64,000 bases of DNA from Candidatus Bipolaricaulaceae bacterium (GTDB lineage Bacteria; Bipolaricaulota; Bipolaricaulia; Bipolaricaulales; Bipolaricaulaceae): assembly GCA_049975705.1 (NCBI GenBank), contig JBNGCS010000007.1, forward strand, positions 1-64,000, in the 5' to 3' direction. The notes below the pieces were generated by a model. The model had not been told where the DNA came from, searched no databases, and saw only the letters and a list, made by a program, of their open reading frames with translations. Numbering within the stretch: position 1 is the stretch's first letter; the number at the start of each line of letters is the position of its first letter. Positions 5,351 to 43,799 of the stretch are shown piece by piece. The translations under genes were made by a program, and so were the position numbers.

Positions 5351-6226
5351 TCACTTCTCGGGAGGCGCGACTGTGGCCACCTCCCACAGGAGGATCGTCT
5401 TGTCGCTTGAGCCAGAGGCGAGGATCTTCCCGTCCGGGCTGAACGCCACCGACTGCACATCCTTGCTGTGACCGACCAGGCTGCAAACGCCCGTTCTGCC
5501 TGCTACGTCCCAGAGGATGATCCGCCGGTCGGCGGACCCCGAGGCCAACAGTTCCCCGTCTGGCCGGAAGGCCACCGTCGTGACGCTCCATGTATGCCCG
5601 CTCAAGGTGTGCACCAGGCGGCCAGTGGAAACGTCCCATAGCTTCACGGATCCGTCGTTGGAACCCGAGGCCAGCAGGGAGCCACGGCCGTCGAAGGCCA
5701 CGCTGCGCACCTGGCCGGTGTGGCCGGTGAGCACGCGTACCACCTGGCCGGTGGCCACATTCCAGATCCAAATCGTGTGGTCATCACAGCCCGCCGCGAC
5801 CAGTCTGCCGTCCGGGCTGAACGCCACCGAGCGGACTGCGCCGCTGGGACCGGGCAGAGCTCGCCTCTGCCCACCCGTGGCCGGCCACAGTTCAACCGTC
5901 CCTTGAGCCGTGGCCAGCGCAAGCAGATCTCCGTTTGCGCTGACCGCCAGGGCCATGACCGCGCCGCCGCTGACGATCCGCTGCCGCTCCCGGCCGGATG
6001 CCACCTCCCACAGTCGCACCGTCTTGTCCTCGGATCCGGAGTACAGGATCGCCCCGTCGGGGCTGAATGCCACCGACCACACAGTGCCCGTGTGTCCCTC
6101 CAGGGCTCGATGGGGGAGTTCCGCCACCTCGGGCGGCTCCACCCGCTGTCCGAAGCCGACCAGGCCCAGTCCCACGGCGAACGCGGCCGCCCACCACCCA
6201 AACCTCCTCCCGCTGTCATTGCTCAT
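5351..6226 (-). CDS. WD40-repeat beta-propeller protein with N-terminal signal/TM segment
   Basis: Seven tandem repeats ending WD/WN (SGSEDKTVRLWEV, SGSNDGSVKLWDV etc.); ATG at 6226 preceded by GGAGGTG; hydrophobic N-terminus WWAAAFAVGLGLVGF. Confidence 0.75.
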   Translation of the reverse strand: MSNDSGRRFGWWAAAFAVGLGLVGFGQRVEPPEVAELPHRALEGHTGTVWSVAFSPDGAILYSGSEDKTVRLWEVASGRERQRIVSGGAVMALAVSANGDLLALATAQGTVELWPATGGQRRALPGPSGAVRSVAFSPDGRLVAAGCDDHTIWIWNVATGQVVRVLTGHTGQVRSVAFDGRGSLLASGSNDGSVKLWDVSTGRLVHTLSGHTWSVTTVAFRPDGELLASGSADRRIILWDVAGRTGVCSLVGHSKDVQSVAFSPDGKILASGSSDKTILLWEVATVAPPEK

Positions 6227-6381
6227 CGCCGCCCACCTCCAGGCCACATTCTGTACTCCATTCCACTCGGCCTGGGCAACTGCGTAGGTCTTTGCGGCAG
6301 AAACTAATCCTCCCCGCCGGGCGACTGGACCTGCCGGCGCCAGGGTCCCAGGCAGCCGTCCCCCCCCGCCGGCCAGGGTGC

Positions 6382-10339: not shown

Positions 10340-10780
10340 TCAGTTGTCCGGCATGGCCAAGGCCTCGTATTCGTCCTCCAACAGGCGCTTGTGGCGGCGC
10401 TCCTCCTCGACGAGGGCGGAGAATATCTGGCTGGCCGGGCCTCCCAGGCGGCTCAGTCCCTCGTACAAGGCCACCGAGGCCTGTTCCCGCTTCATGGCAA
10501 CGGCCAGGGCTTCCGGCAGGCCCATGTCCGGACGAGCCTTCACCTCCACCAGCAGGTCGGACAGTTTGAGGTCCGGCGGGGCCGCCCCCTGGGCGATGAG
10601 CTCCTCGGGCTTGATGCGGGACAGCTTCTCCACGTGCCCGTGTTCCCATCCGGCCAGCTCCTGGAACAGCCGTCTCACCCCGGGGTCAGCGGCCTTTGCC
10701 GCCCAGTCTCGGTAGTAGCTCTCCGCCTCCTTCTCCTTGGCCACCGCGAACTCGAGCGCCTTGTTGAGCCCCTGTTGCAC
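10340..10780 (-). CDS. rubrerythrin-family ferritin-like diiron protein (no rubredoxin domain)
   Basis: Four-helix-bundle E..E..H motifs (EAESYY, AGWEHGH, EEERRHKRLLEDEYE); start reassigned to GTG 5 nt after GGAAGGAG; upstream 100 aa of track ORF are P/S/R-rich noise. Confidence 0.6.
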   Translation of the reverse strand: MQQGLNKALEFAVAKEKEAESYYRDWAAKAADPGVRRLFQELAGWEHGHVEKLSRIKPEELIAQGAAPPDLKLSDLLVEVKARPDMGLPEALAVAMKREQASVALYEGLSRLGGPASQIFSALVEEERRHKRLLEDEYEALAMPDN

Positions 10781-10907
10781 GATCGCTCCTTCCCACTCAA
10801 TTTCCTGGTCCGCTGTTTCGCTCACCGCTTGTGTTTCCGGCGACGGCGGTCCTCCAGCTCCGGATGAGGAAAAAGAGGGGGGACTTCGGTCCCCCCTCCG
10901 AAGCCGG

Positions 10908-11300
10908 TCAGGCGAGCTCCACGCGTCGTTCCGCCTCCCACAGCCCGTGGATGTTGCAGTAGGCCACCGCGTGCAGCGTCCCCGGTTCTGTCGTTTTGAA
11001 GGCAAATGTGACCTCATGATGGGTGTGAACTGGGCCCTCGTTGGGACCGGCCACCGCCTCGCCGTGGGCGGCGAATTGGAACTTGCCCAGTTCGTAGGCA
11101 AACTTGTGTCCGTCCGGGGAGAAATAGGCGGCGATCCACCGGATGTGGTGCTCGGTGGTGTTGGGATGGGCGACCGCCTTCCCCAGGCTCACCTTGACTG
11201 GGGTGAACTCGCCGGCCTTCACCCGGTCAGGACACTCGATGACCGGGACGTGCTTCTCCTTCTGCCAGTCGGCCGCTTGGATCTTCTCGCCGATGGACAC
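10908..11300 (-). CDS. superoxide reductase (1Fe-SOR, neelaredoxin/desulfoferrodoxin catalytic domain)
   Basis: GTG start after AAGGAGGTGA; HVPVIE and CNIHGLW iron-ligand motifs of SOR family; 130 aa. Confidence 0.8.
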   Translation of the reverse strand: MSIGEKIQAADWQKEKHVPVIECPDRVKAGEFTPVKVSLGKAVAHPNTTEHHIRWIAAYFSPDGHKFAYELGKFQFAAHGEAVAGPNEGPVHTHHEVTFAFKTTEPGTLHAVAYCNIHGLWEAERRVELA

Positions 11301-11982
11301 CTCGGGTCACCTCCTTGGCGTACAGCTTCCGGTGGCAGAACCACCAATCGTAGCACTCTACTGCGCCGGACTTGGCTTCCTCCAGCCGCTTGTGAGCACC
11401 TGACTCCGAGCCGGGCGGGGGCACAATGGCCCGGTCGCCGATGAGCTCGTTCTGGGGCCAGCCTGCAGGCAGGGCGACTTTCTCCCGGTCCGCAGTCTGC
11501 AGGGCCTGCAACAGCCGCAGTATCTCGTCCATGTTCCGGCCCACGTTCAACGGGTAGTAGATCATCGCCCTGACCTTGCCCTGGGGATCGATTATGAACA
11601 CCGCCCGGACGGTCTGGGCCTCAGCGGCCTCAGGGTGCAACATCCCGTACAGGGCGCCTATCTTCCCCGTGTTGTCGGCGATCACCGGAAACGGGATCTT
11701 CACGCCCAGCTCGTCCTCGATCCACTGCACCCACTTGATGTGGGAGTAGATTTGGTCGATGGACAGGCCAACCAGCTCGGCTCCAAGCTGTTTGAACTTC
11801 TCGCTCCGCTTGGCAAAGGCCACGAACTCCGTGGTGCACACCGGGGTGTAGTCGGCTGGGTGCGAGAACAGCACGACCCACTTGCCCGCGTAGTCCTTGG
11901 GGAAGTCCATGGGGCCGTGGGTGGTGCTGGCCCGAAAGGCCGGGGCCGGGTCTCCGATCAACGGCATCCGTCGCTCTTCCAC
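11227..11982 (-). CDS. 1-Cys peroxiredoxin (Prx6/AhpC-TSA family)
   Basis: PVCTTE peroxidatic-Cys motif, C-terminal CYDWWFC arm typical of archaeal-type Prx; GTG start 5 nt after AAGGAGG; overlaps SOR by 74 nt. Confidence 0.8.
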   Translation of the reverse strand: MEERRMPLIGDPAPAFRASTTHGPMDFPKDYAGKWVVLFSHPADYTPVCTTEFVAFAKRSEKFKQLGAELVGLSIDQIYSHIKWVQWIEDELGVKIPFPVIADNTGKIGALYGMLHPEAAEAQTVRAVFIIDPQGKVRAMIYYPLNVGRNMDEILRLLQALQTADREKVALPAGWPQNELIGDRAIVPPPGSESGAHKRLEEAKSGAVECYDWWFCHRKLYAKEVTRGVHRREDPSGRLAEGEARPGHRVS

Positions 11983-12006: not shown

Positions 12007-12795
12007 TCACTTCAGCACACAAACGGCCGCCGGCTGGCGGAGCACCAGCGCCAGTGTCTCCGACACGGTGAACTCCAGCCGATCTCCGGCTGGGCCGATG
12101 AAGCCCACGGAAAGGTCCTGGCCGAGGACGATGGCCCCGGTGGGCCGTCCCACTGCCAACAGCACCCCGCCGCTCTCCAGAACCGGCGCCTTGTGCACGC
12201 CGTCCTGGACCACGGTCTGCAGGTGCTCGAGTTCGGTCCGGTTACCGCGGGGGTAGAGTCGCAGCAGGCGGTTGTAGCGGTCGGGGGCCAGGGCCAGGGC
12301 GTAGGGCCCGTGGAAGCCGGCCCGGTCCAGCGCGCTGATCGCTCTGATGATGTCCTCGGCCGCCTCGCCGGGTGCGTCCCACGCCGCCAGGGGCTGCTCG
12401 GCTGCGCCCGCGGCGGTGAGCAATCCCGGAGCTGCCTGTGTCCCCCAGAAGATCAGTTCGTCCTCCCGGCGGGCACACGTTCGGGCAGCCTGGACCGCTG
12501 GGGTGGTGTCCAGTGGTACCCCGTCGCGCTCGTGGGCCGCCAGGTCGCGCTTGGCCAGCGTGAATCCCGCCCGGACGGTGCTCACGGGGACCACTGCCCC
12601 GCTGACCAGCCCCTCATCGTCCTCGACATCCGGGAGCGGGACGGCCTTGAGGCCGAGACCGTACGGCCCCTCGACCTCCAGCAGCCGCCGTCCAGCCAGG
12701 ACGCCCTTGGCGGCTTCGATCACCGCCTGGTCCAACGCCGCCCAGCTCTCCGGGGCCAGGGGAGCGTCGCCGCGCGCCAAGTACTTGTTGGCCAT
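12007..12795 (-). CDS. family 1 encapsulin nanocompartment shell protein (linocin M18-like, HK97 fold)
   Basis: 262 aa; alignable along its length to T. maritima encapsulin (..LEVEGPYGLG.., ..GAIVLGQDLSVG.., C-terminal ..VCVLK); ATG 7 nt after GAGGAGG; 8 nt downstream of EncFtn stop. Confidence 0.85.
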   Translation of the reverse strand: MANKYLARGDAPLAPESWAALDQAVIEAAKGVLAGRRLLEVEGPYGLGLKAVPLPDVEDDEGLVSGAVVPVSTVRAGFTLAKRDLAAHERDGVPLDTTPAVQAARTCARREDELIFWGTQAAPGLLTAAGAAEQPLAAWDAPGEAAEDIIRAISALDRAGFHGPYALALAPDRYNRLLRLYPRGNRTELEHLQTVVQDGVHKAPVLESGGVLLAVGRPTGAIVLGQDLSVGFIGPAGDRLEFTVSETLALVLRQPAAVCVLK

Positions 12796-12806
12796 CTGTT
12801 GCCTCC

Positions 12807-13169
12807 TCAGTCGCGCAGCGACCCCAGCGTGGGCTCCTCGCCCGGGCCGCCCGCCTCGTTCGCAGTCTCCTGGCCGCCTTCGGCCAGCTCGTCCACCTCC
12901 TCGGCTCCCTGAGCGAGGTAGCTGTCTTCGTCACCGGTGAGGATCTGCAGCAGGCGGGTGAACTCCCCGACGTGTACCCTCTCCTCGTCGGCGATGTCAA
13001 CGAACACTTTCTTGGCCAGCGGGTGGTCCGTGGCCTCGGCGTGGGCCATGTACAGGTGGACTGCCTCCTCTTCAGCGGCGATGTCCAGCCGTATTGCCCT
13101 GATCAACTCCTGTTTGGTCAACTTGCGATCTGGAACCTTACCCGAGAACGGATTGAGGAACTCCGGCAT
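12807..13169 (-). CDS. encapsulated ferritin-like protein (EncFtn) cargo with C-terminal encapsulin targeting peptide
   Basis: 120 aa; EncFtn metal-site residues (AAEEEAVHLY.., DIADEERVHVGEF); acidic linker then C-terminal ..EEPTLGSLRD matching the (S/T)xGSLxx family-1 cargo-loading peptide; ATG after AAAGGAGGGGAG. Confidence 0.8.
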   Translation of the reverse strand: MPEFLNPFSGKVPDRKLTKQELIRAIRLDIAAEEEAVHLYMAHAEATDHPLAKKVFVDIADEERVHVGEFTRLLQILTGDEDSYLAQGAEEVDELAEGGQETANEAGGPGEEPTLGSLRD

Positions 13170-13181
13170 CTCCCCTCCTTT

Positions 13182-13685
13182 CTAGAAAGCGCGGCACTTG
13201 TTCCTAGCTGCCCCGCAAACCGGACAGAACTCCGGTGCTTCCCCGGCCACAGTGTAGCCGCACACCGGGCAGATGTACACGGTTCCCAGATCCACATCCT
13301 CCCCCGCTTGGGCCGCGTCTTTGGCCTCCCGGTACATGCGGGCGTGGATCTTCTCCGCTTCCATGGCGAAGTGGGTGGAGCGGGCCGCCCCGGGCACCCC
13401 CTGGAATTGGGCTGTGTTGTTGTAGACGGGGTACATCTCCTCCACCTCGAAGGACTCGCCATCGATGGCTACCTGCAGGTTCGCTGGTGTGCTCCGGATC
13501 ATGCCCAGCTCCCGGTAGTGGTTGGTGGCGTGTACCTGCTCCGCGTAGGCAATGGCACGGAACAGCCGGGCCAGGTTGAGTTTCCCCTCCCGCTCGGCCA
13601 CCTCGGCGAAGATCAGGTAGCGCATGTGGGCCTGTGCCTCCCCCGCAAACGCGGCCCGCAGGTTGTCCTCCGTCATCTTGGGCAT
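13182..13685 (-). CDS. rubrerythrin (diiron domain + C-terminal rubredoxin-like CxxC..CxxC domain)
   Basis: Start reassigned to ATG 5 nt after AAGGAGG (MPKMTEDNLRAAF..); ferritin-like E..E..H motifs; C-terminal CPVCGY...CPVCGA. Confidence 0.85.
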   Translation of the reverse strand: MPKMTEDNLRAAFAGEAQAHMRYLIFAEVAEREGKLNLARLFRAIAYAEQVHATNHYRELGMIRSTPANLQVAIDGESFEVEEMYPVYNNTAQFQGVPGAARSTHFAMEAEKIHARMYREAKDAAQAGEDVDLGTVYICPVCGYTVAGEAPEFCPVCGAARNKCRAF

Positions 13686-13803: not shown

Positions 13804-14355
13804 CTACCGCAGGAACTTGGACACAAATGGGGACGTATCGCCGCGGCGCAGGAAATGGCCGGATGGCCCCTCGCCCAGGAACTCAGAAAACCACGACTCG
13901 TGCTCGATCTCCTCGTGAAGTATGGCTAGGGCCAGGTCATACGTGCGATGGTCCTTGCCACTGGTCAGGTTGCAGATGTCCGTATACCCCCGCACCGCGC
14001 ACCGCTCGGCCTCCACGAGCACCCGCAGGATTGCCCCAACGTCTTGGGGTTCCTGGGGCAGCTTGGCGGGTCTGCACGCCGACATGTTGTGGAACGAGAC
14101 CATGTCGTCCGGAAGCTTCCCTCCCAGCTCGTAGATCCGGGGCACCAGGGCCTCGAAGTGGTTGCGGTCCTCAATCCGTGCCGTCTCGGCGATCTCTTTG
14201 ACCGTCTCCCCCTCCATGCCGATCAGGTTCGACCGGAGGATTGTGTAGTAGTAGTAGGTGGTGAGTTCCGCCGCCGCGTTCTTCACCAGAAGCTCCAGGA
14301 GCCTATCCACATCCACCCCCGCCCGTTCCACCATCTCTCTTGCTACCCTTCCCAT
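13804..14355 (-). CDS. DPS-like (DPSL/thioferritin) ferritin-superfamily peroxide-resistance protein
   Basis: 183 aa starting MGRVAREMV (ATG 6 nt after GGAGG); near-colinear with Sulfolobus DPSL (TTYYYYTILR, GMEGE, EIAE.ARIEDRNHFE, RIYELGG, EAERCA, DPRTYDLA, ILHEEIEHE, GxPSGHF); start overlaps Fur stop by GGAGGTTAGCATG. Confidence 0.8.
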   Translation of the reverse strand: MGRVAREMVERAGVDVDRLLELLVKNAAAELTTYYYYTILRSNLIGMEGETVKEIAETARIEDRNHFEALVPRIYELGGKLPDDMVSFHNMSACRPAKLPQEPQDVGAILRVLVEAERCAVRGYTDICNLTSGKDHRTYDLALAILHEEIEHESWFSEFLGEGPSGHFLRRGDTSPFVSKFLR

Positions 14356-14356
14356 G

Positions 14357-14821
14357 CTAACCTCCGTCTCTCTCCGTCCCTTGGCAGGCTGGGCACAGAC
14401 CCTCGAACACCAGTTGGTGGGCCGCAACCTGAAACCCGCCATTCAGCTTCACCCGGTCCAGGTCATGGCGGTACGGAACGTCGATATCGTAGACCCGCCC
14501 GCAGCTCAAGCAGCGGAAGTGATAGTGGGGGGAAGTGTTGCCATCGAATCGATCTGGGCCGGCCCCGTGGAGTTCCAGCACAGCGCCCTCGCGGGCTAGC
14601 CCGCGCAGGGTACGGTACACGGTGGCCAGGCTGATGTCCTCACCTTTCTCCCGCAGCGCGTGATACATGGCCTCGGCCGTCGGGTGATCCTTCCGTTGCC
14701 GGAGGGCTTCCACGATTGCCCGCCTCTGCCTCGTCCACCGCCAGCTACTCACCTTGCTGTTCATGCTATTCATTCGCATTATACTCCATGGGCACGGCCG
14801 CGCAACCTCAACAGGTGACAC
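14357..14821 (-). CDS. Fur-family metalloregulator, PerR-like by context
   Basis: R.T.QR..IVEAL DNA-binding helix, HYHF...C..C and C..C structural Zn motifs; start ambiguous: GTG 14821 versus ATGs at 14779/14773/14764 lying inside/after a TATAAT box (possible leaderless start). Confidence 0.7.
   Translation of the reverse strand: MSPVEVARPCPWSIMRMNSMNSKVSSWRWTRQRRAIVEALRQRKDHPTAEAMYHALREKGEDISLATVYRTLRGLAREGAVLELHGAGPDRFDGNTSPHYHFRCLSCGRVYDIDVPYRHDLDRVKLNGGFQVAAHQLVFEGLCPACQGTERDGG
14775..14783 (-). promoter_or_regulatory. second copy of TATAATGCG box, inside/just before Fur-like gene N-terminus
   Basis: minus-strand GGAGTATAATGCGAATGAATAGCATG; ATG overlaps the box end, suggesting a leaderless or very short-leader transcript. 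Confidence 0.35.
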
Positions 14822-14824
14822 CTC

Positions 14825-16039
14825 TCAGCGGAGATGGTGATAGTCGCCGGCTGCAAGGCGGGCCAGTCTATCCTCCACCGGGGCGCCGGCTTTGATCAGC
14901 GACTCAGTCGGCGCAATTCCCTCGGGATCTCCCAACAGGATCGCCCCCACCAGGCGGCCATCTCGGACGACGAACTTGCGGTATACGCCCCGCTCAAGCT
15001 CGGCGGTGCGCACCTCGGCGCCCGGGCCCCCCTGCGGCTGGGTCTCCCCTAGGCAGGCCAAATCCACGCCGACCACCTTCAGCCGGTTGGCCACCACCGT
15101 GCCCTGATAGGGGGTGCTTTGGGGCTCGGCCATGTTCTGCGCGGCCAGCTCACCCTGCTCGCGGGCCGCGGGGATGATCCCGTATACTCGCCCTTGCCAC
15201 TCGGCCGCGTCGCCGCAGGCGTACACATCCGGCGCCGATGTCTGCAGGAAGTCATCCACCACGATGCCCCTGGCCGTGTGCAGACCGGCCTCGGCAGCCA
15301 GTACGGTCCGGGGGCGGACGCCGGCGGCCATCACCACCAGCTCGGCGGCCACCTGCTCTCCATCAGTCAGCCTTACCCCGCGCACCTCCTGGTCGCCCAT
15401 CAGCTCCTGACACTGAACCCCGGTCCGCACGTGTATGCCCATCTCCGTCACCACGCTCATCAAGGCCTGGGAGCCCTCGCGGTCCAGCTGTCGCGGCAGC
15501 AGCCAGGGGGCCAACTCCAATACAGTGACTGGTAGGTTCCATGCCCGCAGGGCCCGGGCCACTTCCAGGCCCAGCCACCCCCCGCCGACCACCGCGGCAG
15601 CACGCGCCCGGGGGGCTCGGGTGCGGATCCGGTGAGCGTCGGCCGCCGTGCGTAGGGTGAACACGCCTTCCAGGTGGGTGCCGGGGAGAGGGGGAACGGC
15701 GGCCTGGGCGCCGGTGGCGAGCAGCAGCCTATCGTATGGCAATTCCTCGCCGCTGCTCAAAGTGACCCGCCGGCGGGCGAGGTCCAGCGCCACCACCGCC
15801 CCGCCCGTCCGCAAGTCGATGTCTTGCCGCTCATACCAGCTGGTGTCGAATGGGGTGATGTCCGCCAGCTCAGCGGTGCCGGCGACCACGGAGATGAGCC
15901 CCGGGCGCAGGTAGTACGGGGTGGGCTCGGCCTCGGCCAGGGTCACCGCGGCTGCGGGCACCAACGCCCGCAGCTTGCGCGCGGCGGTCACCCCGGCCAG
16001 ACCGCCGCCGATCACCAAGAAGCGCGGGGCCTTAGCCAA
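14825..16039 (-). CDS. NAD(P)H:rubredoxin oxidoreductase (FAD/NAD(P)-binding pyridine nucleotide-disulfide oxidoreductase)
   Basis: Two GxGxxG/A dinucleotide folds ([19 protein letters not shown]); start placed at TTG 16039 ([13 protein letters not shown]) because upstream ATG lies inside the rubredoxin gene; 8-nt overlap with rubredoxin stop. Confidence 0.7.
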
Positions 16040-16193
16040 GCTTCTCGAACATGTCCTTGGGCGCCCCGCACTCGGGACACACCCAGGACTCAGGGAGGTC
16101 TTCAAATGACGTCCCCGGGTCGATGCCCTGGGAGGGGTCCCCCTTCTCAGGGTCGTACACCCAACCGCAGACGGCGCATTCCCACTTGTCCAC
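16032..16193 (-). CDS. rubredoxin (53 aa), not in the supplied ORF track
   Basis: Hand-translated: GTG start after GGAGGTGAGACGAC; [53 protein letters not shown]; two CxxCG knuckles with conserved W/Y/F core. Confidence 0.8.
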
Positions 16194-16221
16194 GTCGTCT
16201 CACCTCCAGATGAAAAGTCTC

Positions 16222-16230
16222 CGCATTATA
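16222..16230 (-). promoter_or_regulatory. TATAATGCG -10-like box 31 nt upstream of rubredoxin start
   Basis: minus-strand CTCGTTATAATGCGGAGAC...GGAGGTGAGACGACGTG; identical 9-mer also at 14775..14783. Confidence 0.4.
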
Positions 16231-16259
16231 ACGAGGGGCGCCGGCGGGAGCGCTCGAGC

Positions 16260-16289
16260 TTGACACCCGGGCACAACCGGGAGTAGAGT
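16260..16289 (+). promoter_or_regulatory. candidate sigma70 promoter for sugar ABC operon (TTGACA-N18-TAGAGT)
   Basis: TTGACA at 16260..16265, TAGAGT at 16284..16289; about 100 nt upstream of the substrate-binding protein start. Confidence 0.3.
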
Positions 16290-16388
16290 GTTTATCTGAG
16301 CAGTTTTGGTAAAGGGGGTGGTTAGTGAACATAGCGTAGTTATTCTGGAGGGAACAATAGGCGATGCGTGGACGTGTGAGGAGGTGAG

Positions 16389-25618: not shown

Positions 25619-28087
25619 TCACCCGACGCGGAAGCCCAGTCGCGCCCCAAGCTGTGCGAACGCTCGCATCCACCCCTGGGCAGCCTGGTCGCCGGCATCG
25701 GCTTGTGCCTCAACTTGCGGCCGGATTTGGCGGGACATTTCGTAGTACGTGTTTTGCACTTGCCAAAGGTCGACCTCGAACGGGAAATCCAGTGCGGCGG
25801 AGATGCGGTCCTTGACTTCAGTTATTCTGGCCGGCTCGGCCGCCGCCGCGGCCGCCCAGCGGGCGAGTCGCTGCAACGCTTGGGCCAGGGCGTGGCCCAG
25901 GGTCACCCGATCCAGGGCGAGGTTCCTGTCTTGTGCTTCCTCCACCAGCCCCCGGGCCGTGGGCAGGTCGGGGTCGTCGCGGGCCAAGGCTCGCTGTATC
26001 TGGCGGTTCAACACGAACTGGGCGGCTGCCCGTAGGGCTTCAGGGGCGGGGATCCCCAAGTCGGCGAGGAACAGAAGCAGCGAACTGTTCTCCTCGTAGA
26101 TGTGTTGGTACTCGGATTCCACCTGGGACAACGTGGCCGCCAGGATGCTGTCCACTGTCCGGCGCTGTTCGTCTCGAAACAGTGATCTCAACGAGTAACG
26201 CGGCGGGCCGAACCCACCATCCAGCGCGCGGAGCGTCTCGGGAAGGTCGCCGGCCAGGAATGGCCGGGTTAAGTCGGCAACCACCTGCCGGTACGCCTGG
26301 GGTCCTGGGTACTCCTTTACCCCACCCGACAGGTTGTGGTCCCCGAGGTGCAGGACTCCGAAGGCCAGCTCAGCTGTCTCCCAGGTGATCTGCGAAGTCA
26401 CCCGCGCGTGCCCCACGGCCAGCCGGGCCGGCCCCACCTCCCGCAGTTGGTGGTCCCCGCGGTCCACGGTGAAGCAGTACACCGAGTCCCGTTCTCCGTA
26501 GCCGTCGAACAGGGAGCTGATCGCATAGTGGGCGGCCACGTGTGGCAAGTCGACCCGGGCCGGCCGCACCTGGGTCTCGTAGATCTGGCGGCCGTCCGCG
26601 TGCTCGGGCAGGTTGCTCTTGGCCCGCTCCAGGCGGGCGAGGAACTCCGTCTCCAGCTGGTTGCCAAACAGCTCCTGGGCGAGCTGAAGGGCCCGGCCGG
26701 CGTAGCGGATGACCTGGACCGTCTCGATCCCGGACAGCTCGGCAAAGAACCAACCGCAGCTGGTGTACATCAGCATGGCGTGGCGCTGCATCTCCAACAG
26801 CTTGAGCGCGCGGACCTTGTCCGCGGGGGTCAGCTCCCGCGCGGCGTGCTGGGCCAACAGCTGGTCCGCGGACTGCGGCGAACGGGCAATGACAACGTGC
26901 CCGTAGTCGTCCCGCGCCGCCCACGGGTCCTTAAACAGCTCCCTGCCCGAGTCCGTGAACCGTACGGCCAGCGCGTCGCGGAGCCAGTCAAAAGCCTCCC
27001 GCAGAGGACCCCGCCAGGACTGATTCCACTCTGGCCGGCCCCCGCTGACACAGCCACAATCGGCCTGCCAGCGGTCTAGGCCGTGGGCACAGCTCCACGA
27101 AGTGTTCTCGGCGATCTCCACCTCCCACTGCGGGGGGTGACGGGCCAGGAACTCGCCGTAGTTGGTGAGCTCGACCTCCGACGCAGACGCCAGCGAGTGG
27201 AGGGCGTAGGCCAGGGCCATGTCCCCGTGGCGGTGGTGGTGTCCGTAGGACTCCCCGTCGGTAGCCAGGTGTACCAAGGACGCGGCATCCGCCTGGTTCG
27301 GAAAAGCGGACATCAGCCGCTGGGCGAACGCCTCCCCGCTCCTCAGCAGCCCCTCGAAGGCCACCGCTTGGGCCAGCGGACCGTGGTAGAAGAAGACCGT
27401 CAGCTCCCCGCCCGCGGGCAGCCGTACCCGGTACGGCCGGGTGGGGTCCACCCGCCCTCCGGAGACGTCCTGCCACTCGCCGCCGGCCAGGGGACGCACG
27501 CGAGCTGCTTGGTGCGGGGCGAGGATGGTGAACGTGATCCCCGCCTCGGCCAACGTCTCCAAGGTGGGGATGTCCACAGCGGTCTCGGGCAGCCACATCC
27601 CTTCGGGGGCCCGCCCGAACCGGCGGCGGAAGTCGGCCACCCCCCAGATCACCTGGGTGCGGCGGTCGCGTGAATTGGCCAGGGGCAGGATGATGTGGTT
27701 GTAGGGCTGGGCCAAGGCGTTCCCGTGGCCGGACAAGCGGTCACGGCTCCCCCGGTCGGCCTCCAGGATGCGGGCGTACACGTCCGGCCGCTTGCTCTCC
27801 AGCCAGCTCAGCAACGTGGGGCCGAAGTTGAAACTGATGTGGGCGTAGTTGTTGACGATGTCCGCAATGCGGCCTTCCTCGTCCAGGATGCGGGAGGCGG
27901 AGTTGGGGGCGTAGCACTCGGCCGTCACCCGCTCGTTCCAGTCGTGGAACGGGTAGGCCGAGTCCTGGACCTCCACCGCCTCCAGCCACGGGTTCTCCCG
28001 CGGCGGCTGGTAGAAATGGCCGTGAACGCACACGTAGCGGTCCGTCAACTCGTCCCCCCTGCTGCGTTCGTCGTGGTTCGCCGCCAC
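25619..28087 (-). CDS. glycoside hydrolase family 57 protein with C-terminal DUF3536-like extension
   Basis: N-terminal [19 protein letters not shown] and ..[13 protein letters not shown].. GH57 catalytic motifs; 822 aa. Confidence 0.8.
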
Positions 28088-29964
28088 TGGAGGAAAATGA
28101 TCCCCAACGGGGGCAGGGTGAGGTGAACGGAGCAGGGGCGGCCGTGGGCGCCGCTCGCCGTGGTCCAGCGGCCCCCCATGTTCCCCCAGCCGCTACCGCC
28201 GTATTCGCGAGCGTCGCTGTTCAGTACCTCGCTCCAGTGTCCGCTCCGGGGGACGCCCACCGGGTAGCCCTCGCGGGGCACCGGGGTGAAGTTGGCGGCC
28301 ACCAGCAGCAGCTGGTCGGGGGAAGTTCCGAACCGCAGGAAGGTCACTGCACTGGCGGCCGCGTCGTCGGCGTCCACCCACTGGAACCCCTCCGGCGAGA
28401 AGTCCAGCTCATACAAGGCTGGGTTCCCTTGGTGGAGGCGGTTGAGATCCTGGACCCATCTTCGCAGGCCCGCATGGTCGCGATCTTGGAGGAGCTCCCA
28501 CTCCAGCTCGCTGTCGTGCTGCCATTCCGACTGCTGGCCGAACTCCCCGCCCATGAACAGGAGTTTCTTCCCGGGCAGGGCGTACATGTACCCCAGGAGG
28601 AGCCGCAAGTTGGCCAGTCGACGCCATCGGTCCCAGGGCATCTTCTCCAGCAGCGACCGCTTGCCGTGCACCACCTCATCGTGGGACAGGGGGAGGACGA
28701 AGTTCTCCGATAAAGCATAGATCATCCGGAATGTGAGCTGATTATGGTGGTACTTGCGGTGGACGGGGTCCCGGCTCAAGTAGTCAAGCGTGTCATGCAT
28801 CCATCCCATGTCCCACTTCATCCCGAACCCCAGGCCGCCCGCATAGGTCGGCCGGGACACCTTGGGCCAGGCGGTGGACTCCTCGGCCACCGTCTGCACG
28901 TCAGGGAAGCGGCGGTAGACCTCTGTGTTCAGCTGTTTGAGGAACGAGATGGCCTCCAAGTTCTCGTTTCCTCCGTAATCGTTGGGGAGCCACTCCCCCT
29001 CTTGCCGCGAGTAGTCGAGGTAGAGCATGGAGGCCACCGCGTCCACCCGCAGCCCGTCGGCGTGGTACGTATCGAGCCAGAACAGTGCGGAGGAGAGCAG
29101 GAAAGACCGGACCTCCGGGCGGCCGTAGTTGAAGATGAAAGAATTCCAGTCAGGGTGGAAACCGCGGCGCGGGTCGGCGTGCTCGTACAGGTGGGTCCCG
29201 TCGAAGAAGCCCAGCCCGTGCTCGTCGGCCGGGAAGTGGGAGGGAACCCAGTCCAGGATGACCCCAATCCCGTGCTGGTGCAGGATGTCCACCAGGTACA
29301 TGAAGTCCTGCGGCGCGCCGTACCGCGACGTGGGGGCGAAGTAGCCGGTGGTCTGGTAACCCCACGAGCCGTAGAACGGGTGTTCCATGACTGGCAGGAA
29401 CTCCACGTGGGTGAACCCCATGTCCACCAGATACTCAGCCAGCCTCGGCGCCAGCTCCCGATAGGAGAGGAACCTCCCCCCTGCCCCCCGCTGCCAGGAG
29501 CCCAGGTGGACTTCGTAGATGGCCAGGGGGCCGGCAAGGGCGTTGCGTTGGCTGCGCCTTGCCATCCACGCCTGGTCTCCCCAACGGTAGTCCAAGTCCC
29601 ACACCACGGAAGCAGTGCCCGGCGCCCGCTGGTGGTAGTGGCCCACCGGGTCGGCCTTGTCTACTTGGTAGCCGGCGTAGCGGGATGAGATGTGATACTT
29701 GTACAGGGCCCCCTTGCCCGCTTCGGGGACGTGACCGGCCCAGATTCCCGACCTCCCCTGTGGCTCCAGCAGGTGGGCCCGCTTGTCCCAGCCGTTGAAG
29801 TCGCCGATCACCGAGACTCTCTCCGCATCCGGCGCCCACACGGCAAACTGCGTCCCGGCGTCCCGCGGCAACAGATGAGCTCCCAATACCTCGTGCAGCC
29901 GCAGGTGTGTTCCCTGGTTGAACAAGTACAGGTCGTCCGCGGTCAGCTGGCGATGCGCCGTCAT
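28045..29964 (-). CDS. glgB: 1,4-alpha-glucan branching enzyme (GH13)
   Basis: N-terminal CBM48-like region, GH13 conserved regions ([37 protein letters not shown]). Confidence 0.85.
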
Positions 29965-30145
29965 CTGCCCTCGCTCCCCGAACCCGGGGAAGCCCGCCGT
30001 CTGCGGCGTTCACCGTCGGCTCTGATCATCGGCCCAGTGTACCCAGTTCACTCGCGGTTGGGAAAGCGGGCACTGCAAGCGTTGCACGGTCGCTGCGGCG
30101 CTGGCTAGACTCAGTTCGACAGGCGGGGGGAGGAAAGGAGCGCGG

Positions 30146-31393
30146 TTGGAGAAGATTGGCTTTGTCTCCACTCGGTTGGCGGGGACCGACGGGGTCTCGC
30201 TGGAAGTCCGCAAGTGGGGCAACGTCCTGTCAGAGCAGGGATACGAGTTGACCTTCTTTGCCGGCGAGTGCGATTGGCCGGCCGACCGTTCCCGGGTGGT
30301 CCCGGAAGCCCACTTCCAGCATCCTCAAGTGCGCGCGGTCACCGAGGAGCTGTTCGGCCGCGAGACGCGGGGCCCGAGCACGTCCCGGCGCGTGGCGGCC
30401 CTCAAGGACCACCTCAAGGGGCACTTGCACAGCTTTGTCGCTGAGTTCGGCGTGGAGATCATGGTCGTGGAGAACGCCCTCTCCCTCCCGGTGAACGTCC
30501 CGCTGGGGCTGGCGCTGGCCGAGCTGATCGCCGAAACGGGCATCCCCACCATCGCCCACCACCACGATTTCTGGTGGGAGCGGCGACGGTTTGCCCTCAG
30601 CGCGGCCGGGGACTACCTGCGGGCGGCCTTCCCTCCGGTACTACCCTCGGTCCACCACGTGGTGATCAACTCATTCGGGGGGAGCCAGCTGGCGCTCCGC
30701 ACTGGGGCCACATCTGTGTTGATCCCCAACGTGATGGACTTTGAGACCCCGCTCCCGCCCCCGGACGCCCACACAATCAGGCTGCGTCCCGCGTTGGGAG
30801 TGCCCACGGGCACCTTCCTTCTCCTCCAGCCCACCCGAATCGTGCCCCGCAAGCGCATCGAGCTGGCCATGGAGCTGGTACGGCGGCTGGAACTTCCCTG
30901 CGTCCTGGTAGTCTCCCATTCGGCCGGCGACGAGGGGACGGCCTACAAGCGTCACCTGGAACGGTATGCAGATCTGCTTGGGGTGGACGTCATCTTCGCC
31001 CACGAGTTCATCGCTCACGGTCGCCGGACGACAGGAGGGAAGGAGTTGTTTTCGTTGGCCGATGCCTACCGCCAGGCGGACCTGGTGACCTATCCGTCCA
31101 CCGTGGAAGGGTTTGGCAACGCCTTCCTGGAGGCGGTCTACTACCGCCGCCCTTTGGTGATGAGTACCTACGAGATCTTCCAGACGGACATCGCCCCCAA
31201 GGGGTTTGAGGTGATCGAGTTCGGGGACTTCATCGGGGAGGACACCGTGCGGCGCGCCCGGGCAGTACTCGAGAATCCAGCGCTGGCCGAGGACTGGGTT
31301 GAGCACAACTACCAGGTCGCCCGGAGACACTATTCGTTTGCCGTCCTGGAGAAGTACCTAGCCGCCCTGATGGGCCGGGCCCGGCGCAGCTAG
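30146..31393 (+). CDS. glycosyltransferase family 4, paralog of 20821..22197
   Basis: TTG start 6 nt after AAAGGAG; MEKIGFVSTRLAGTDGVSLEVRKW..; GT4 C-terminal domain. Confidence 0.7.
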   Translation: MEKIGFVSTRLAGTDGVSLEVRKWGNVLSEQGYELTFFAGECDWPADRSRVVPEAHFQHPQVRAVTEELFGRETRGPSTSRRVAALKDHLKGHLHSFVAEFGVEIMVVENALSLPVNVPLGLALAELIAETGIPTIAHHHDFWWERRRFALSAAGDYLRAAFPPVLPSVHHVVINSFGGSQLALRTGATSVLIPNVMDFETPLPPPDAHTIRLRPALGVPTGTFLLLQPTRIVPRKRIELAMELVRRLELPCVLVVSHSAGDEGTAYKRHLERYADLLGVDVIFAHEFIAHGRRTTGGKELFSLADAYRQADLVTYPSTVEGFGNAFLEAVYYRRPLVMSTYEIFQTDIAPKGFEVIEFGDFIGEDTVRRARAVLENPALAEDWVEHNYQVARRHYSFAVLEKYLAALMGRARRS

Positions 31394-31397
31394 CCGG

Positions 31398-31601
31398 CTA
31401 CGCCCGCAGGGATACCACGGTCCGCCGCTCCTCGCTGTGCAGCTCGAGTTTCGCCTCCCGGGCCAGCCACCCCAGCGCCATGAGCACCAGCCGTTCGGGG
31501 CCCTCCACCTGGCGGATCACCTGGGACAGGGAACAGGGTCCCTGTTCGGTTAGGAACCGCCACACCCGGCCTGCCGCCTCGCCCACATCCGCCACGCCCA
31601 T
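31398..31601 (-). CDS. small winged helix-turn-helix protein (DUF2582-like)
   Basis: 67 aa MGVADVGEAAGRVWRFLTEQGPCSLSQVIRQ...ALGWLAREAKLEL matches the conserved pattern of a widespread ~70-aa wHTH family. Confidence 0.5.
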   Translation of the reverse strand: MGVADVGEAAGRVWRFLTEQGPCSLSQVIRQVEGPERLVLMALGWLAREAKLELHSEERRTVVSLRA

Positions 31602-31743
31602 CGCCCATCACCCCCCTGTGCCGGTGCACGATAGCCCCGTGCGCCTGCGCTGACAGGGTCTCCCGTTGGCCGACGGCCGCCCTAAGGTTAACATGGCCAT
31701 TCGTGCGCGACGTGCAGGGGGAGGGGAGGGGTCAAGGCCGGCC

Positions 31744-33873
31744 ATGACGCAAGTGGACTTGGTCTTCGGCGTGCACTGCCACCAGCCAGTGGGCAACTTC
31801 CCGGAAGTGGTGGAACGGGCGTGTGGAGATGCCTACCTGCCGCTGCTGACGGCCCTGGATCGCCACCCGGCGGTCAAGGCCGTGGTGCACATGACCGGAC
31901 CGCTGTGGGAGCACCTGGAGGCGCATCGCCCGGAGGTGCTGGCTCTGGTGGGGCGGTTGGTGGACCGCGGGCAGGTAGAGCTCCTCGGCGGCGGGTTCTA
32001 CGAGCCCATTTTGGCAGCCATTCCCCCGCAGGACGTCGCTGCCCAGCTGGCCCGGATGCGGGCGTACCTGAAGAGTCGGTTTGGCCAGGATCCCGTAGGG
32101 ATCTGGCTTGCCGAGCGGGTGTGGGAGCCGCATCTGCCCAGCCTCCTGTCCGAGTGTAATGTGCGCTACTTACCAGTGGATGACACGCACTTCCCCCGGG
32201 CTGGCCTATTGTCGGCCCAGATCAGCGGGTACTACCTCACTGAGGATCGCGGCTGCCCGGTGGGCGTGTTTCCCATCTCAGGCCGCTTGCGTTATCTCAT
32301 CCCCTTCCGCCCCTTGGACGAGGTGATGGCCTACTTCAGGGCGATTGCTGCGCAAGGGGGCTGGCCGCTGCTCGTGCTGGTGGACGGCGGGGAGAAGTTC
32401 GGGGTGTGGCCGGGGACCAAGCGGTGGGTGCACGATGAGGGCTGGCTGGAACAGTTCCTGCGAGCTCTGGTGGACAACGCCGCTTGGTTGGGGACCACCA
32501 CTCTGCGCGAGGCGTTCGCCGCTCGGGAACCCCTGGGGCGGGTCTACCTGCCCGCCACCTCGTACTTCGAGCTGGGAGAGTCGGCCCTGCCCGCGGCGGC
32601 TGAGCACCGAATGGAGGCGCTCAAGTCAGCGTTGGGCAGCCGTCTGGAGGAGTCTCGCCCCTTGCTCTCCGGTGGCTTCTGGCGCGGCTTTCTAACCAAG
32701 TACCCAGAGGCCAACTACCTGCACAAGCGGATGCTTCGGCTGAGCGAGCGAGCTTCGCGCGCCCCGGCGGGAGGGCGGCTGAGGGAGGAGCCGAGAAAGC
32801 ATCTCCTGCGCGCCCAGTGCAACGACGCCTACTGGCACGGCCTGTTCGGGGGAATCTACTTGCCGCACTTGCGAGATGCCCTGTGGCGGGAGCTGCTCTC
32901 CGCCCAGTGGCTGCTGGACCGGCTGGAGCGGGGGCAAGCGGCGTGGGGCGGCCTGTACAGCGGTGATCTGGACGTTGACGGGCACCGGGAGGTGGTGGCG
33001 GAAACGGAGAAGTGGAACGTGGTCCTGTCCCCCCGGTTCGGCAGTACGATCGTCGAGCTGAGCGACAAGACCATCCCCTACAACTTCCTCAACGTGGTGG
33101 CCCGCCGTCCGGAAGGTTACCATCGGTGCGTGCCCGCCGACGCGGGCGAGGAGGACGGTGCCCCGCGGAGCATCCACGAGATCACGGCGGCTAAGGTGCC
33201 GCACCTGGAAAGCTACCTGGTCTACGACCGTCATCCGCGCGCCGGGCTGGTGGACCATCTGTTCCGCCCCCAGGCCACCCTGGATCAGCGGGCAGCCGGA
33301 TCAGCAGCCGAGCTTGTAGACCTGCAGGGGGAGGCTTACGCGGCCGCAACCCAGGAGGGGGAGCGGGGGATCGCGGTGTCCCTCGCCTGGCAGGGCAGCG
33401 CCGGCGATGGGCGACTGCGGCTGGAGAAAATGGTCCGATTGTCCCCGGGCGGGCAGGGTGTCTGCGTGCGGGTGGGACTTGAGAACAGCGGTCCACGCGC
33501 GGTGCACCTCCTGTACGGGATGGAGTTCAACTTCGGGATGCTCGCCGGGGATGCCGCGGATCGCTACTTCCAGCTGCCCGGCCGCCGGCTGACCGACCCC
33601 CGGATGGCCAGCCGTGGTGAGGAGCGAGACGTGACCTGCCTCCGCCTGGTGAACGACTGGGAGGGCTGGGCCCTCGAGGTGCAGACCTCGCGCCCTGCCT
33701 TGCTGTGGCGCCACCCTGTTCACACGGTAAACAATTCCGAGGCCGGCTTCGAGCTGGTCTATCAGGCCTCCTGTGTGGTGCTGGCGTGGGAGCTGTGCCT
33801 GAGCCAGGGCGGCTGCTCCACGCTGGATCTGTCCCTCCGTACCACAGGCCGCCGGCGGGGAATTCACTGCTGA
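31744..33873 (+). CDS. GH57 alpha-amylase/4-alpha-glucanotransferase
   Basis: Start moved to MTQVDLVFGVHCHQPVGNF (GH57 signature); ..ERVWEPHLP.. and ..VDGGEKFGVWPGT.. motifs. Confidence 0.75.
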   Translation: MTQVDLVFGVHCHQPVGNFPEVVERACGDAYLPLLTALDRHPAVKAVVHMTGPLWEHLEAHRPEVLALVGRLVDRGQVELLGGGFYEPILAAIPPQDVAAQLARMRAYLKSRFGQDPVGIWLAERVWEPHLPSLLSECNVRYLPVDDTHFPRAGLLSAQISGYYLTEDRGCPVGVFPISGRLRYLIPFRPLDEVMAYFRAIAAQGGWPLLVLVDGGEKFGVWPGTKRWVHDEGWLEQFLRALVDNAAWLGTTTLREAFAAREPLGRVYLPATSYFELGESALPAAAEHRMEALKSALGSRLEESRPLLSGGFWRGFLTKYPEANYLHKRMLRLSERASRAPAGGRLREEPRKHLLRAQCNDAYWHGLFGGIYLPHLRDALWRELLSAQWLLDRLERGQAAWGGLYSGDLDVDGHREVVAETEKWNVVLSPRFGSTIVELSDKTIPYNFLNVVARRPEGYHRCVPADAGEEDGAPRSIHEITAAKVPHLESYLVYDRHPRAGLVDHLFRPQATLDQRAAGSAAELVDLQGEAYAAATQEGERGIAVSLAWQGSAGDGRLRLEKMVRLSPGGQGVCVRVGLENSGPRAVHLLYGMEFNFGMLAGDAADRYFQLPGRRLTDPRMASRGEERDVTCLRLVNDWEGWALEVQTSRPALLWRHPVHTVNNSEAGFELVYQASCVVLAWELCLSQGGCSTLDLSLRTTGRRRGIHC

Positions 33874-43400: not shown

Positions 43401-43799
43401 GTTGGCGAATATCTCGTCTGGCCCCACCAGTTCGTTGGCGAAGCACTCCGCCGCCCGCCGACAGGCGAGCGATTCCAAGACGTCCGCCATCTCCACGCCC
43501 TTGTAGAAGCGGCGGTCGGCGTACCGCCGGAAATAGGCCAGCTGCTCGGGGAGGTCGACCAGCCGGCTCTCGGGCAGTCGGAGGGTCTCCTCCCGCGGGT
43601 ATCCCTCAGCGTAGATGGAGGTGAACACGGATTGGAGCGCCTCGCGGACGGCGACGGGAGTGAGGGATTCGGAGGGGATGAGGATGATCTTGTCTCGTTG
43701 GCGCCTCTCTTCGGCATTGATTAATTTCTGCAACTGGGCGTCCATCTCTGCCAGCGCCATGGTCCACAGCAGGCGTTCGTCCATTGAAGCTCCTTTCAC
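40485..43799 (-). CDS. tri-partite fusion: serine hydroxymethyltransferase (N) - unknown ~280-aa region - glycine-cleavage T-protein/aminomethyltransferase (C)
   Basis: One uninterrupted 1104-aa frame; aa 1..~440 carry SHMT motifs (LIPSESLT, EGYP, VQPLSGAAAN, TTHKTLAGPRG, PGAQGGP, VANKNTIP, RGIRYGTPWVTQRG); aa ~740..1104 align to GcvT (LFDLGHMG, EVIDDLMVYR, CARTGYTGEGLGYE, ARDSLRTEAG). Confidence 0.75.
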   Translation of the reverse strand: MKGASMDERLLWTMALAEMDAQLQKLINAEERRQRDKIILIPSESLTPVAVREALQSVFTSIYAEGYPREETLRLPESRLVDLPEQLAYFRRYADRRFYKGVEMADVLESLACRRAAECFANELVGPDEIFANVQPLSGAAANMAIYDALLSPGDTLMALDLTQGGHLSHGSPFHQSGRRFKVVPYSVDPRSERLDYNQILDLAKRHRPKMIVAGYTSYPWAPSWEAFREIADAAGALLLADIAHTAGMAAAGAYPNPVGHADVVMFTTHKTLAGPRGAVILTCDPDLAKAIELAVFPGAQGGPHVNKFAAMACAFQIARTESFRTCQHRIVDNARHLAHALQQQGLRLCYGGTDTHLLVIDLRKVRTPNGQPLMGEIAARLLDLVGLVANKNTIPGDTSAADARGIRYGTPWVTQRGMGKAEMEEIAEITARVLTEIRPFSYLGLTGPLSRGKVPVGLLSESRARVARLARRGADVDGQGTGQTRDRTAAPCRLTAAVGRGPSSPCGALLVQGGRAGHLLHEASSAHILSLTVGRARRAALFDADAQVVAEAIVGRLPDGPEGGERFAVLAPPGQVEPLRRWLAGLADGYVLFDHGDIYRKVQGPAVVSAMAAGDASTGELAFHLEGEGDLNVELDGDQTESRRQEALFAGVAGDAASVFRDHPHLFAPRKPYFVGGHAITLPEAKDARAPIAPSREGQTTPLTEIHRQLGAKLVQFAGYQMPAWYSSALAEHRAVRQRAGLFDLGHMGIFEVAGRYAESFLNLVTTNYAGWLHPGQSQYGFLLTPAGEVIDDLMVYRRARDRFLVVVNAANEARDWDWMCAVNSGQVLLDPERPWVEPDGEVTLANLKEPHAPDPRIDLALQGPASRAVLVRLVSPRDARRLRALRRTEFLELSVGGRDVLCARTGYTGEGLGYELYVHPQDAEEIWGRILEAGEPFQVAPCGLAARDSLRTEAGLPLFGHELAGRHHIAPHEAGFAPYVKLHKPFFVGREAYLRALEAWKREVVRFRIPAGSRPIRAEAGVVDRSGRMLGWVTSCTPLEDGQVGMALLERRGLAEGTPLGFLVDKDLPARLEVGARLPLTVWGELVTRFPVAAKLPQPGGE

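Follow-up and report, generated by a model that had tools for sequence, protein, structure and literature searches.

Do two adjacent minus-strand genes on contig JBNGCS010000007.1 encode the shell and the cargo of an encapsulin nanocompartment and, if so, what would such a compartment do for its host? The genes lie within the first 64,000 nucleotides (nt) of the contig (assembly GCA_049975705.1, Candidatus Bipolaricaulaceae bacterium), and this whole 64 kb stretch is called the window below. An earlier note, made from the sequence alone, had proposed a family 1 encapsulin shell gene preceded by a gene for a ferritin-like cargo protein, EncFtn, with a C-terminal targeting peptide. Our analysis indicates that the two products very probably form a classical family 1 encapsulin nanocompartment that mineralises iron. 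The features concerned are listed here, with protein lengths in amino acids (aa).

12007..12795, minus strand: family 1 encapsulin shell protein with an HK97 fold (262 aa, ATG start; hidden Markov model (HMM), PDB and fold matches)

12796..12806, minus strand: 11-nt intergenic spacer with a GGAGG ribosome-binding site at 12802-12806 (read from the sequence)

12807..13169, minus strand: EncFtn/Flp ferritin-like cargo protein (120 aa, ATG start; ferroxidase-centre residues E33, Y40, E63 and H66)

12840..12881, minus strand: flexible acidic, Gly-rich linker of the cargo protein, residues 97-110 (EGGQETANEAGGPG; low column identity)

12810..12839, minus strand: C-terminal targeting peptide of the cargo protein, EEPTLGSLRD, residues 111-120 (conserved in homologues; resembles published EncFtn tags)

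The product of 12007..12795 is, as judged from its matches, a family 1 (classical) encapsulin shell protein. The Pfam model Linocin_M18 (PF04454) matches residues 4-249 with E = 1.5e-68 and 231.2 bits against a cutoff of 24.3, and the NCBIfam equivalog model encap_f1 (NF041155) matches residues 6-261 of 262 with 223.9 bits against a cutoff of 100. The earlier note had named a lack of matches to encapsulin HMMs as grounds for giving up the assignment; both scores are far above the curated cutoffs. A phmmer search of the PDB matched 37 distinct encapsulin sequences, and residues 4-262 are covered, which is essentially the full length. The best solved match is EncA of Myxococcus xanthus (PDB 4pt2, E = 2.4e-41, ~33% identity), followed by the T=4 shell of Quasibacillus thermotolerans (E = 1.8e-37). 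The shell of Thermotoga maritima had been chosen for comparison in the earlier note, and the end-to-end alignment described there holds: residues 4-262 align with residues 2-264 of 3dkt (E = 2.9e-25), with 31% identity in a direct BLASTP comparison that used a sequence verified to be identical to 3dkt_A. However, EncA is the closer solved shell.

The predicted structure gives the same picture. An AlphaFold2 model based on an alignment of 120 homologues has a mean predicted local distance difference test score (pLDDT) of 85 and a predicted template-modelling score (pTM) of 0.80. When this model was compared with the PDB by Foldseek, the top 50 matches were all encapsulins, with template-modelling (TM) scores of 0.73-0.86 (EncA, 0.85; T. 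maritima, 0.79). An identical protein from a Candidatus Bipolaricaulaceae metagenome-assembled genome (MAG) is named "family 1 encapsulin nanocompartment shell protein" at NCBI. By analogy with characterised homologues, the 262-aa protein would self-assemble into a closed icosahedral shell. Relative to EncA, it has a gap of ~15 residues in the region of query residues 58-70, a stretch that we take to be the E-loop.

The product of 12807..13169 is an encapsulin ferritin-like protein with a predicted ferroxidase centre. The NCBIfam model EncB_fam (NF058679) matches residues 1-118 with 125.6 bits against a cutoff of 90. The narrower EncB model (NF058678) gives 34.8 bits, far under its cutoff of 210, and the protein is therefore a member of the broad EncB family and not an EncB orthologue. 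Its Pfam matches are Rubrerythrin, COQ7 and Mn_catalase, which are the misleading labels that Andreas and Giessen describe for encapsulin Flp cargos (PMC8346489). The same labels (rubrerythrin, CoQ7 or Mn catalase) are attached to many homologues, and the NCBI entry for the exact protein reads only "ferritin family protein." The naming of this cargo and its homologues thus fits a known pattern of mis-annotation, and it can be corrected. Among solved structures, the best relative is M. xanthus EncC (7s8t, E = 5.7e-16, residues 5-113), and the second best is the EncFtn domain of Pyrococcus furiosus (5n5e, E = 1e-12). The sequence of EncFtn from Rhodospirillum rubrum is absent from the PDB matches at E<=1e-3.

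The metal-binding residues that had been claimed for this protein are present. All of 117 full-length homologues have E33, Y40, E63 and H66, and the spacing of these residues equals that of R. rubrum E32, Y39, E62 and H65, which form a ferroxidase centre whose activity is reduced or abolished when they are mutated (PMC11202242). The description as a ~100-aa four-helix protein needs adjustment. The protein has 120 aa in total, of which ~95 are structured, and an EncFtn monomer consists of two long helices and short ones that yield the four-helix ferritin-like unit only as a dimer (PMC11202242). By homology, the monomer here would be such a half-ferritin with two long helices, and the four-helix unit would be that of its dimer.

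The cargo protein ends in an acidic, Gly-rich linker followed by EEPTLGSLRD, just as was described. Its C-terminus reads ...GGPGEEPTLGSLRD, then TGA, and the 3' end of the gene on the coding strand is GAG GAG CCC ACG CTG GGG TCG CTG CGC GAC TGA. Across the 117 homologues, mean column identity is 0.90 in the core (residues 14-96), falls to 0.54 in residues 97-112, and returns to 0.88 in residues 113-119. Linker columns fall as low as 0.21 and contain insertions and deletions. In the tail, T114 and G116 are conserved in 100% of sequences, S117 in 97% and L118 in 94%, and position 119 is K or R. The motif G[ST]L occurs within the last 14 residues of 108 of the 120 closest cargo homologues; the remaining 12 are truncated entries or carry GSM, GSF, GAL or GPL. 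The motif is therefore present in orthologous cargo genes, where its absence had been put forward as evidence against the proposal. A conserved T-[ILV]-G-S-L-[KR] core that follows a variable linker is more than chance.

Published EncFtn tags include SLGIGSLK (R. rubrum and Haliangium ochraceum), RLTVGSL (EncC) and PLTVGSL (EncB), with the consensus [LF]-x-[VI]-G-[ST]-[LI] (PMC11202242). Such tags are expected to follow a disordered linker of 10-40 aa, and a linker and the [ILV]-G-S-L-[KR] core are both present here. The tail P-T-L-G-S-L-R-D keeps the basic residue and two of the three hydrophobic anchors, namely the second and the third. The asserted match to the family 1 cargo-loading peptide thus stands for the conserved core and not for the first anchor. 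In EncA, the first Leu of the tag fills a separate pocket, P1, which its authors call unusual among encapsulins (PMC10402063). Because position 113 is Pro in our cargo protein, a P1 contact like that in EncA is unlikely. The missing anchor is probably a small variation of the motif, and not a failed motif.

The shell also retains the cleft between N-helix and P-domain in which targeting peptides bind, as judged by alignment. The EncA side chains that make ionic or hydrogen-bond contacts with the EncC tag are R28, R34, D38, D213 and D243 (PMC10402063); in the PDB chain used for our alignment, these residues have an index that is higher by one than in the numbering of the paper. They align with K30, R36, E40, D198 and D227 of the shell, and are thus either kept or conservatively replaced. 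Two of these shell residues, R36 and D227, do not vary among 120 shell homologues.

The two genes are also paired consistently. The cargo gene immediately precedes the shell gene, and the spacer from the cargo stop to the shell ATG reads GGAGGCAACAG, with GGAGG directly after the stop. This spacer has 11 nt, and not the 8 nt given previously. When the window proteins were used in tblastn searches, the cargo gene was found directly upstream of the shell gene in 41/41 related loci that include upstream sequence. To find tagged proteins, every stop-to-stop open reading frame (ORF) of at least 50 aa in the window was scanned for [ILVM]-G-[STA]-[LMIF] within its last 20 residues. The scan returned the EncFtn ORF and six other ORFs (51-160 aa), mostly short Arg/Gly/Pro-rich reading frames, and none of the six resembles T-[ILV]-G-S-L-[KR]. 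No such tail is present on the neighbouring rubrerythrin, DPS-like protein, peroxiredoxin, superoxide reductase or second rubrerythrin-like protein. The observation that the neighbouring iron and reactive oxygen species (ROS) proteins are untagged thus holds, and it extends to the whole window. EncFtn is the sole plausible tagged cargo within these 64 kb. The term "sole dedicated cargo" is apt at that scale and goes beyond the evidence when applied to the genome, since cargo genes are dispersed in M. xanthus.

The gene pair is embedded in a longer series of minus-strand genes, which are given here in the direction of transcription.

16032..16193, minus strand: rubredoxin, first gene of the operon (Pfam Rubredoxin, 2e-25)

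14825..16105, minus strand: ORF for NAD(P)H:rubredoxin oxidoreductase (NROR), with a true start probably near 16039 (Pyr_redox_2, 3e-63; Rubredoxin_C, 4e-13)

14357..14821, minus strand: Fur-family regulator (Pfam FUR, 1.7e-26)

13804..14355, minus strand: DPS-like (DPSL) mini-ferritin (NCBIfam PRK13456, 321 bits; Arch_DPS, 300 bits; Pfam Ferritin)

13182..13685, minus strand: rubrerythrin with a C-terminal rubredoxin-like domain, untagged (Pfam Rubrerythrin, 5.4e-25; RUBY_RBDX, 3.1e-9)

11227..11982, minus strand: peroxiredoxin (Prx), directly downstream of the shell gene (NCBIfam PRK13189, 348.7 bits, cutoff 211)

10908..11300, minus strand: superoxide reductase (SOR), neelaredoxin type, last gene of the operon (Pfam Desulfoferrodox, 6.9e-34; GTG start)

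10874..10899, minus strand: hairpin and T-run resembling an intrinsic terminator, just after the SOR stop codon (11 bp stem, 8 G-C pairs)

Nine genes appear to be co-transcribed: those for rubredoxin, NROR, the PerR-like regulator, the DPS-like protein, rubrerythrin, EncFtn, the shell, Prx and SOR. At every junction read, the spacers are short and contain a ribosome-binding site. For example, a 12-nt spacer containing AAGGAGG separates the rubrerythrin gene from the cargo ATG, and the site AAGGAGGTGA precedes the SOR start codon at 11300. The strong hairpin after SOR is likely to mark the end of the operon. Because of these spacers and this terminator, a nine-gene operon is a reasonable reading. 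The flanking genes encode redox or iron proteins, a VWA protein and an ABC solute-binding protein, and GC content is uniform across the region, with no anomaly. The best models for the regulator are PerR models of NCBIfam. A convincing PerR operator was not found upstream of the rubredoxin gene (16194-16388), where only a TATAAT/TTATAAT element, whose TTATAAT resembles half of a PerR box, and a weak 11-nt palindrome are present. A promoter scan of the minus strand likewise gave nothing convincing.

Several details of this gene series were noted along the way. The Prx ORF overruns the SOR start codon by 74 nt (11227-11300) and reads through the SOR ribosome-binding site, and of its 251 residues, those after about residue 220 lie past the end of the Prx family profile. 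These final ~31 residues may be non-functional read-through, a real C-terminal extension or the product of an assembly frameshift. A second rubrerythrin-like gene (10340..10780) lies past the terminator. Two different cages for sequestering iron are encoded in the operon, namely a DPS-like mini-ferritin and the encapsulin with EncFtn, and the rubrerythrin gene is located between them.

A scan of species-representative genomes produced 44 related loci, nearly all in MAGs of Anaerolineae/Chloroflexota, with shell identities of <=63%. A few come from other bins, namely Thermotogota, Armatimonadota, Clostridia and one Methanomicrobiales bin, and no Bipolaricaulota locus is among the results. The closest relative, whose shell is 84% identical, is found on two short Logan metagenomic contigs, where the gene order is an unannotated upstream ORF, EncFtn, shell and Prx. 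Otherwise the nearest named shell relatives are almost all from Anaerolineae, at <=65% identity. Lateral transfer from Anaerolineae is possible, as is mis-binning. A literature search for encapsulins in Bipolaricaulota/Acetothermia found no report.

The surroundings of the pair recur in these relatives. SOR is the next gene upstream of the pair in ~20 related loci. SOR, rubrerythrin, Prx, rubredoxin and PerR genes are found beside the EncFtn-shell pair in many Anaerolineae loci, and a fuller PerR-rubredoxin-(NROR)-Prx-rubrerythrin-SOR block is present in ~10 related loci. In loci with the fuller block, SOR and EncFtn are 1.5-1.9 kb apart, and such an insert is present in the Anaerolineae loci L012, L018, L022, L023, L042, L043 and L044. 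It encodes a DJ-1/PfpI protein and a 165-aa ferritin-like protein, both untagged, and that of L042 additionally encodes a small 4Fe-4S ferredoxin without a targeting peptide.

Since the genes appear to be co-transcribed with ROS-defence genes, the most likely role of the compartment is to sequester iron, as one arm of an operon by which an anaerobe defends itself against oxygen and ROS. In this mechanism, the 262-aa HK97-fold protein would self-assemble into an icosahedral shell. EncFtn would form ferroxidase centres across its dimer interface from E33, E63 and H66, close to Y40, and would, by homology to the decameric EncC and P. furiosus EncFtn, assemble into ring-shaped decamers. The C-terminal tags, in which the linker ends in T-L-G-S-L-R, would tether the decamers to the shell interior. 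Fe2+ could then enter via shell pores, be oxidised by EncFtn, and accumulate in the lumen as an inert ferric mineral. Fe2+ would thereby be kept from H2O2, and hence from Fenton chemistry, when the anaerobe is under O2 or H2O2 stress. NROR and rubredoxin would feed SOR, rubrerythrin and Prx, which would meanwhile remove superoxide and peroxide.

Direct support for the reading as an iron-mineralising compartment comes from the family assignment of the two proteins, the catalytic residues, the conserved tag, the conserved tag-contact residues, the conserved gene adjacency and the gene context. No observation contradicts the identification, although it has limits. The older cargo model TIGR04535 (ferrit_encaps) gives 87.7 bits, under its cutoff of 125. 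The first hydrophobic anchor of the L-x-V-G-S-L consensus is missing; its position is occupied by P113 here and mostly by T, A or P in homologues. Shell assembly, encapsulation and loading of the cargo, decamers, ferroxidase activity and mineral storage are all steps that we infer from characterised homologues. Co-transcription is putative, and so is PerR control, which is suggested by gene content: the PerR models score 99 and 93 bits, under their cutoffs of 180 and 200, and only half a box is seen. The architecture of the shell is a further point. The nearest solved shells, by sequence and by predicted structure, are formers of T=3 and T=4 particles (EncA and Q. thermotolerans), yet the stretch at residues 58-70 is short and the length is that of T=1 shells. 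Because the triangulation number (T) cannot be traced to primary sequence (PMC8802124), we assign none to this shell. It is conceivable, though improbable, that the clade with a short E-loop and a two-anchor tag assembles with a T number, or binds its tag in a mode, unlike those of characterised shells.

Other explanations of the locus have to be weighed against a dedicated iron store. The HK97 fold is common to encapsulins and phage capsids, and the shell gives a match to Pfam Major_capside, although at 18.7 bits it is below the cutoff of 26.8. The 262-aa protein might thus be a degenerate prophage capsid whose ferritin-like neighbour is coincidental. This idea has a negligible probability and is effectively refuted: the encap_f1 equivalog score is far over its cutoff, the top 50 structural matches are all encapsulins, no terminase, portal, protease or other phage gene is among the neighbours, and cargo-shell adjacency (all 41 informative loci), tag and tag-contact residues are conserved. 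A different question is whether EncFtn is the main cargo and not the only one, because the shell also loads a tagged protein encoded elsewhere in the genome. M. xanthus EncA loads multiple dispersed cargos (EncB, EncC and EncD) (PMC11126975, PMC11202242), and EncA is the nearest relative of our shell in sequence and predicted structure; also, our inspection covered 64 kb of the genome. Against this, a GSL-type tag is found on no other plausible ORF of the window and on none of the co-operonic iron and ROS proteins, and the DJ-1/PfpI, ferritin-like and ferredoxin genes of related loci also encode untagged proteins. We consider further cargo conceivable but unlikely.

The remaining alternative concerns function. 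The compartment might be chiefly a physical partner of the co-operonic rubrerythrin/rubredoxin system and not a stand-alone iron store. Rubrerythrin assemblies could enclose the particles, or electrons from NROR and rubredoxin could release stored iron. In P. furiosus, a preprint describes oxidation-induced rubrerythrin tubules that enclose EncFtn-encapsulin particles (10.1101/2025.03.19.643997). In our operon, 12 nt separate the cargo gene from the gene upstream, which encodes a rubrerythrin with a rubredoxin-like domain, and rubredoxin and NROR genes are present as well. Rubrerythrin directly adjoins EncFtn in one related locus (L030), and it is part of the same cluster in a dozen others. 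However, linkage among ROS-defence genes is common and requires no physical complex, the rubrerythrin is untagged, and the immediate upstream neighbour in most related loci is SOR and not rubrerythrin. We consider it highly improbable that such a partnership is the chief role of the compartment. The embedding of the EncFtn-shell pair is seen in the Bipolaricaulaceae MAG and, with variations, in many Anaerolineae loci; that it reflects a physical or electron-transfer partnership, by rubrerythrin enclosure of the particles under oxidative stress or by rubredoxin-driven remobilisation of iron, is quite improbable. If true, it would go beyond co-regulation of ROS genes.

The identification is right but ordinary, and its value hardly exceeds that of an accurate annotation. 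NCBI already lists the shell under its proper name, as a family 1 encapsulin, and curated HMMs recognise both proteins. The mildly unusual points are only the host lineage, the two-anchor tag and the tight embedding beside rubrerythrin in a ROS-defence operon of an anaerobe, the last of which is interesting only in light of the P. furiosus tubule preprint. Nonetheless, the operon is a clean example of an anaerobe with two iron cages beside a detoxification chain of SOR, rubrerythrin, Prx and rubredoxin.

Elsewhere in the window, a single 1104-aa ORF (40485-43799, minus strand) combines a serine hydroxymethyltransferase (SHMT) domain (89-430) with a glycine-cleavage T-protein (aminomethyltransferase, GcvT) domain (705-978), and ~270 residues between them are without a domain assignment. 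This ORF may be an SHMT-GcvT fusion. Another gene (5351-6247, minus strand) encodes a 298-aa bacterial WD40 beta-propeller protein with five strong WD40 repeats, and it adjoins a gene resembling those for nicotinate/quinolinate phosphoribosyltransferase. A glycogen/alpha-glucan cluster (25619-33873) consists of genes for a GH57 protein with DUF3536, a GlgB-type branching enzyme and a GH57 amylase/4-alpha-glucanotransferase.

Among known systems, M. xanthus EncA with EncB and EncC (PDB 4pt2, 7s20, 7s2t and 7s8t) provides the best solved match for both proteins. The EncC tag RLTVGSLRR and the cargo tag here have a T-[VL]-G-S-L-R core in common. However, the shell here is ~25 residues shorter than EncA, and ~15 of these residues belong to the stretch at query residues 58-70. 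In EncA, pocket P1 is filled by the first hydrophobic residue of the tag, whereas the residue at that position here is Pro. The cargos of M. xanthus are dispersed, whereas the cargo gene here adjoins the shell gene and is the only one in the window. EncA forms a T=3 particle when loaded.

The T. maritima encapsulin with Flp (PDB 3dkt, 7kq5 and 7k5w) is also of family 1 and is similar in size (265 versus 262 aa), with end-to-end identity of 31%. There, too, the Flp cargo gene immediately precedes the shell gene in the operon, and the host is likewise an anaerobe. It is more distant from our shell than is EncA (E = 2.9e-25), and its tag is of the GGDLGIRKL type, whereas the tag here is of the GSL type. 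T. maritima W87 (numbering of 3DKT), which we equate with the flavin-stacking residue called "W90" in PMC8610991, aligns with R83 of the shell, and R83 is invariant in 120 shell homologues. Because the position of the stacking Trp is occupied by this invariant Arg, flavin binding of the T. maritima type is not expected here.

EncFtn of R. rubrum and H. ochraceum is a decamer with a Glu/Glu/His ferroxidase centre plus Tyr and an ...IGSLK tag (PMC11202242), and the cargo here has the same residue spacing. Since R. rubrum EncFtn is not matched at E<=1e-3 and TIGR04535 is below its cutoff, our cargo is placed in an EncB/EncC-like branch, unlike R. rubrum EncFtn. The EncFtn-encapsulin of P. furiosus (PDB 2e0z and 5n5e) likewise belongs to an oxidative-stress setting in an anaerobe. 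There, the cargo is fused to the N-terminus of the shell protein and no tag is needed, whereas here shell and cargo are encoded by separate genes and the cargo carries a C-terminal tag.

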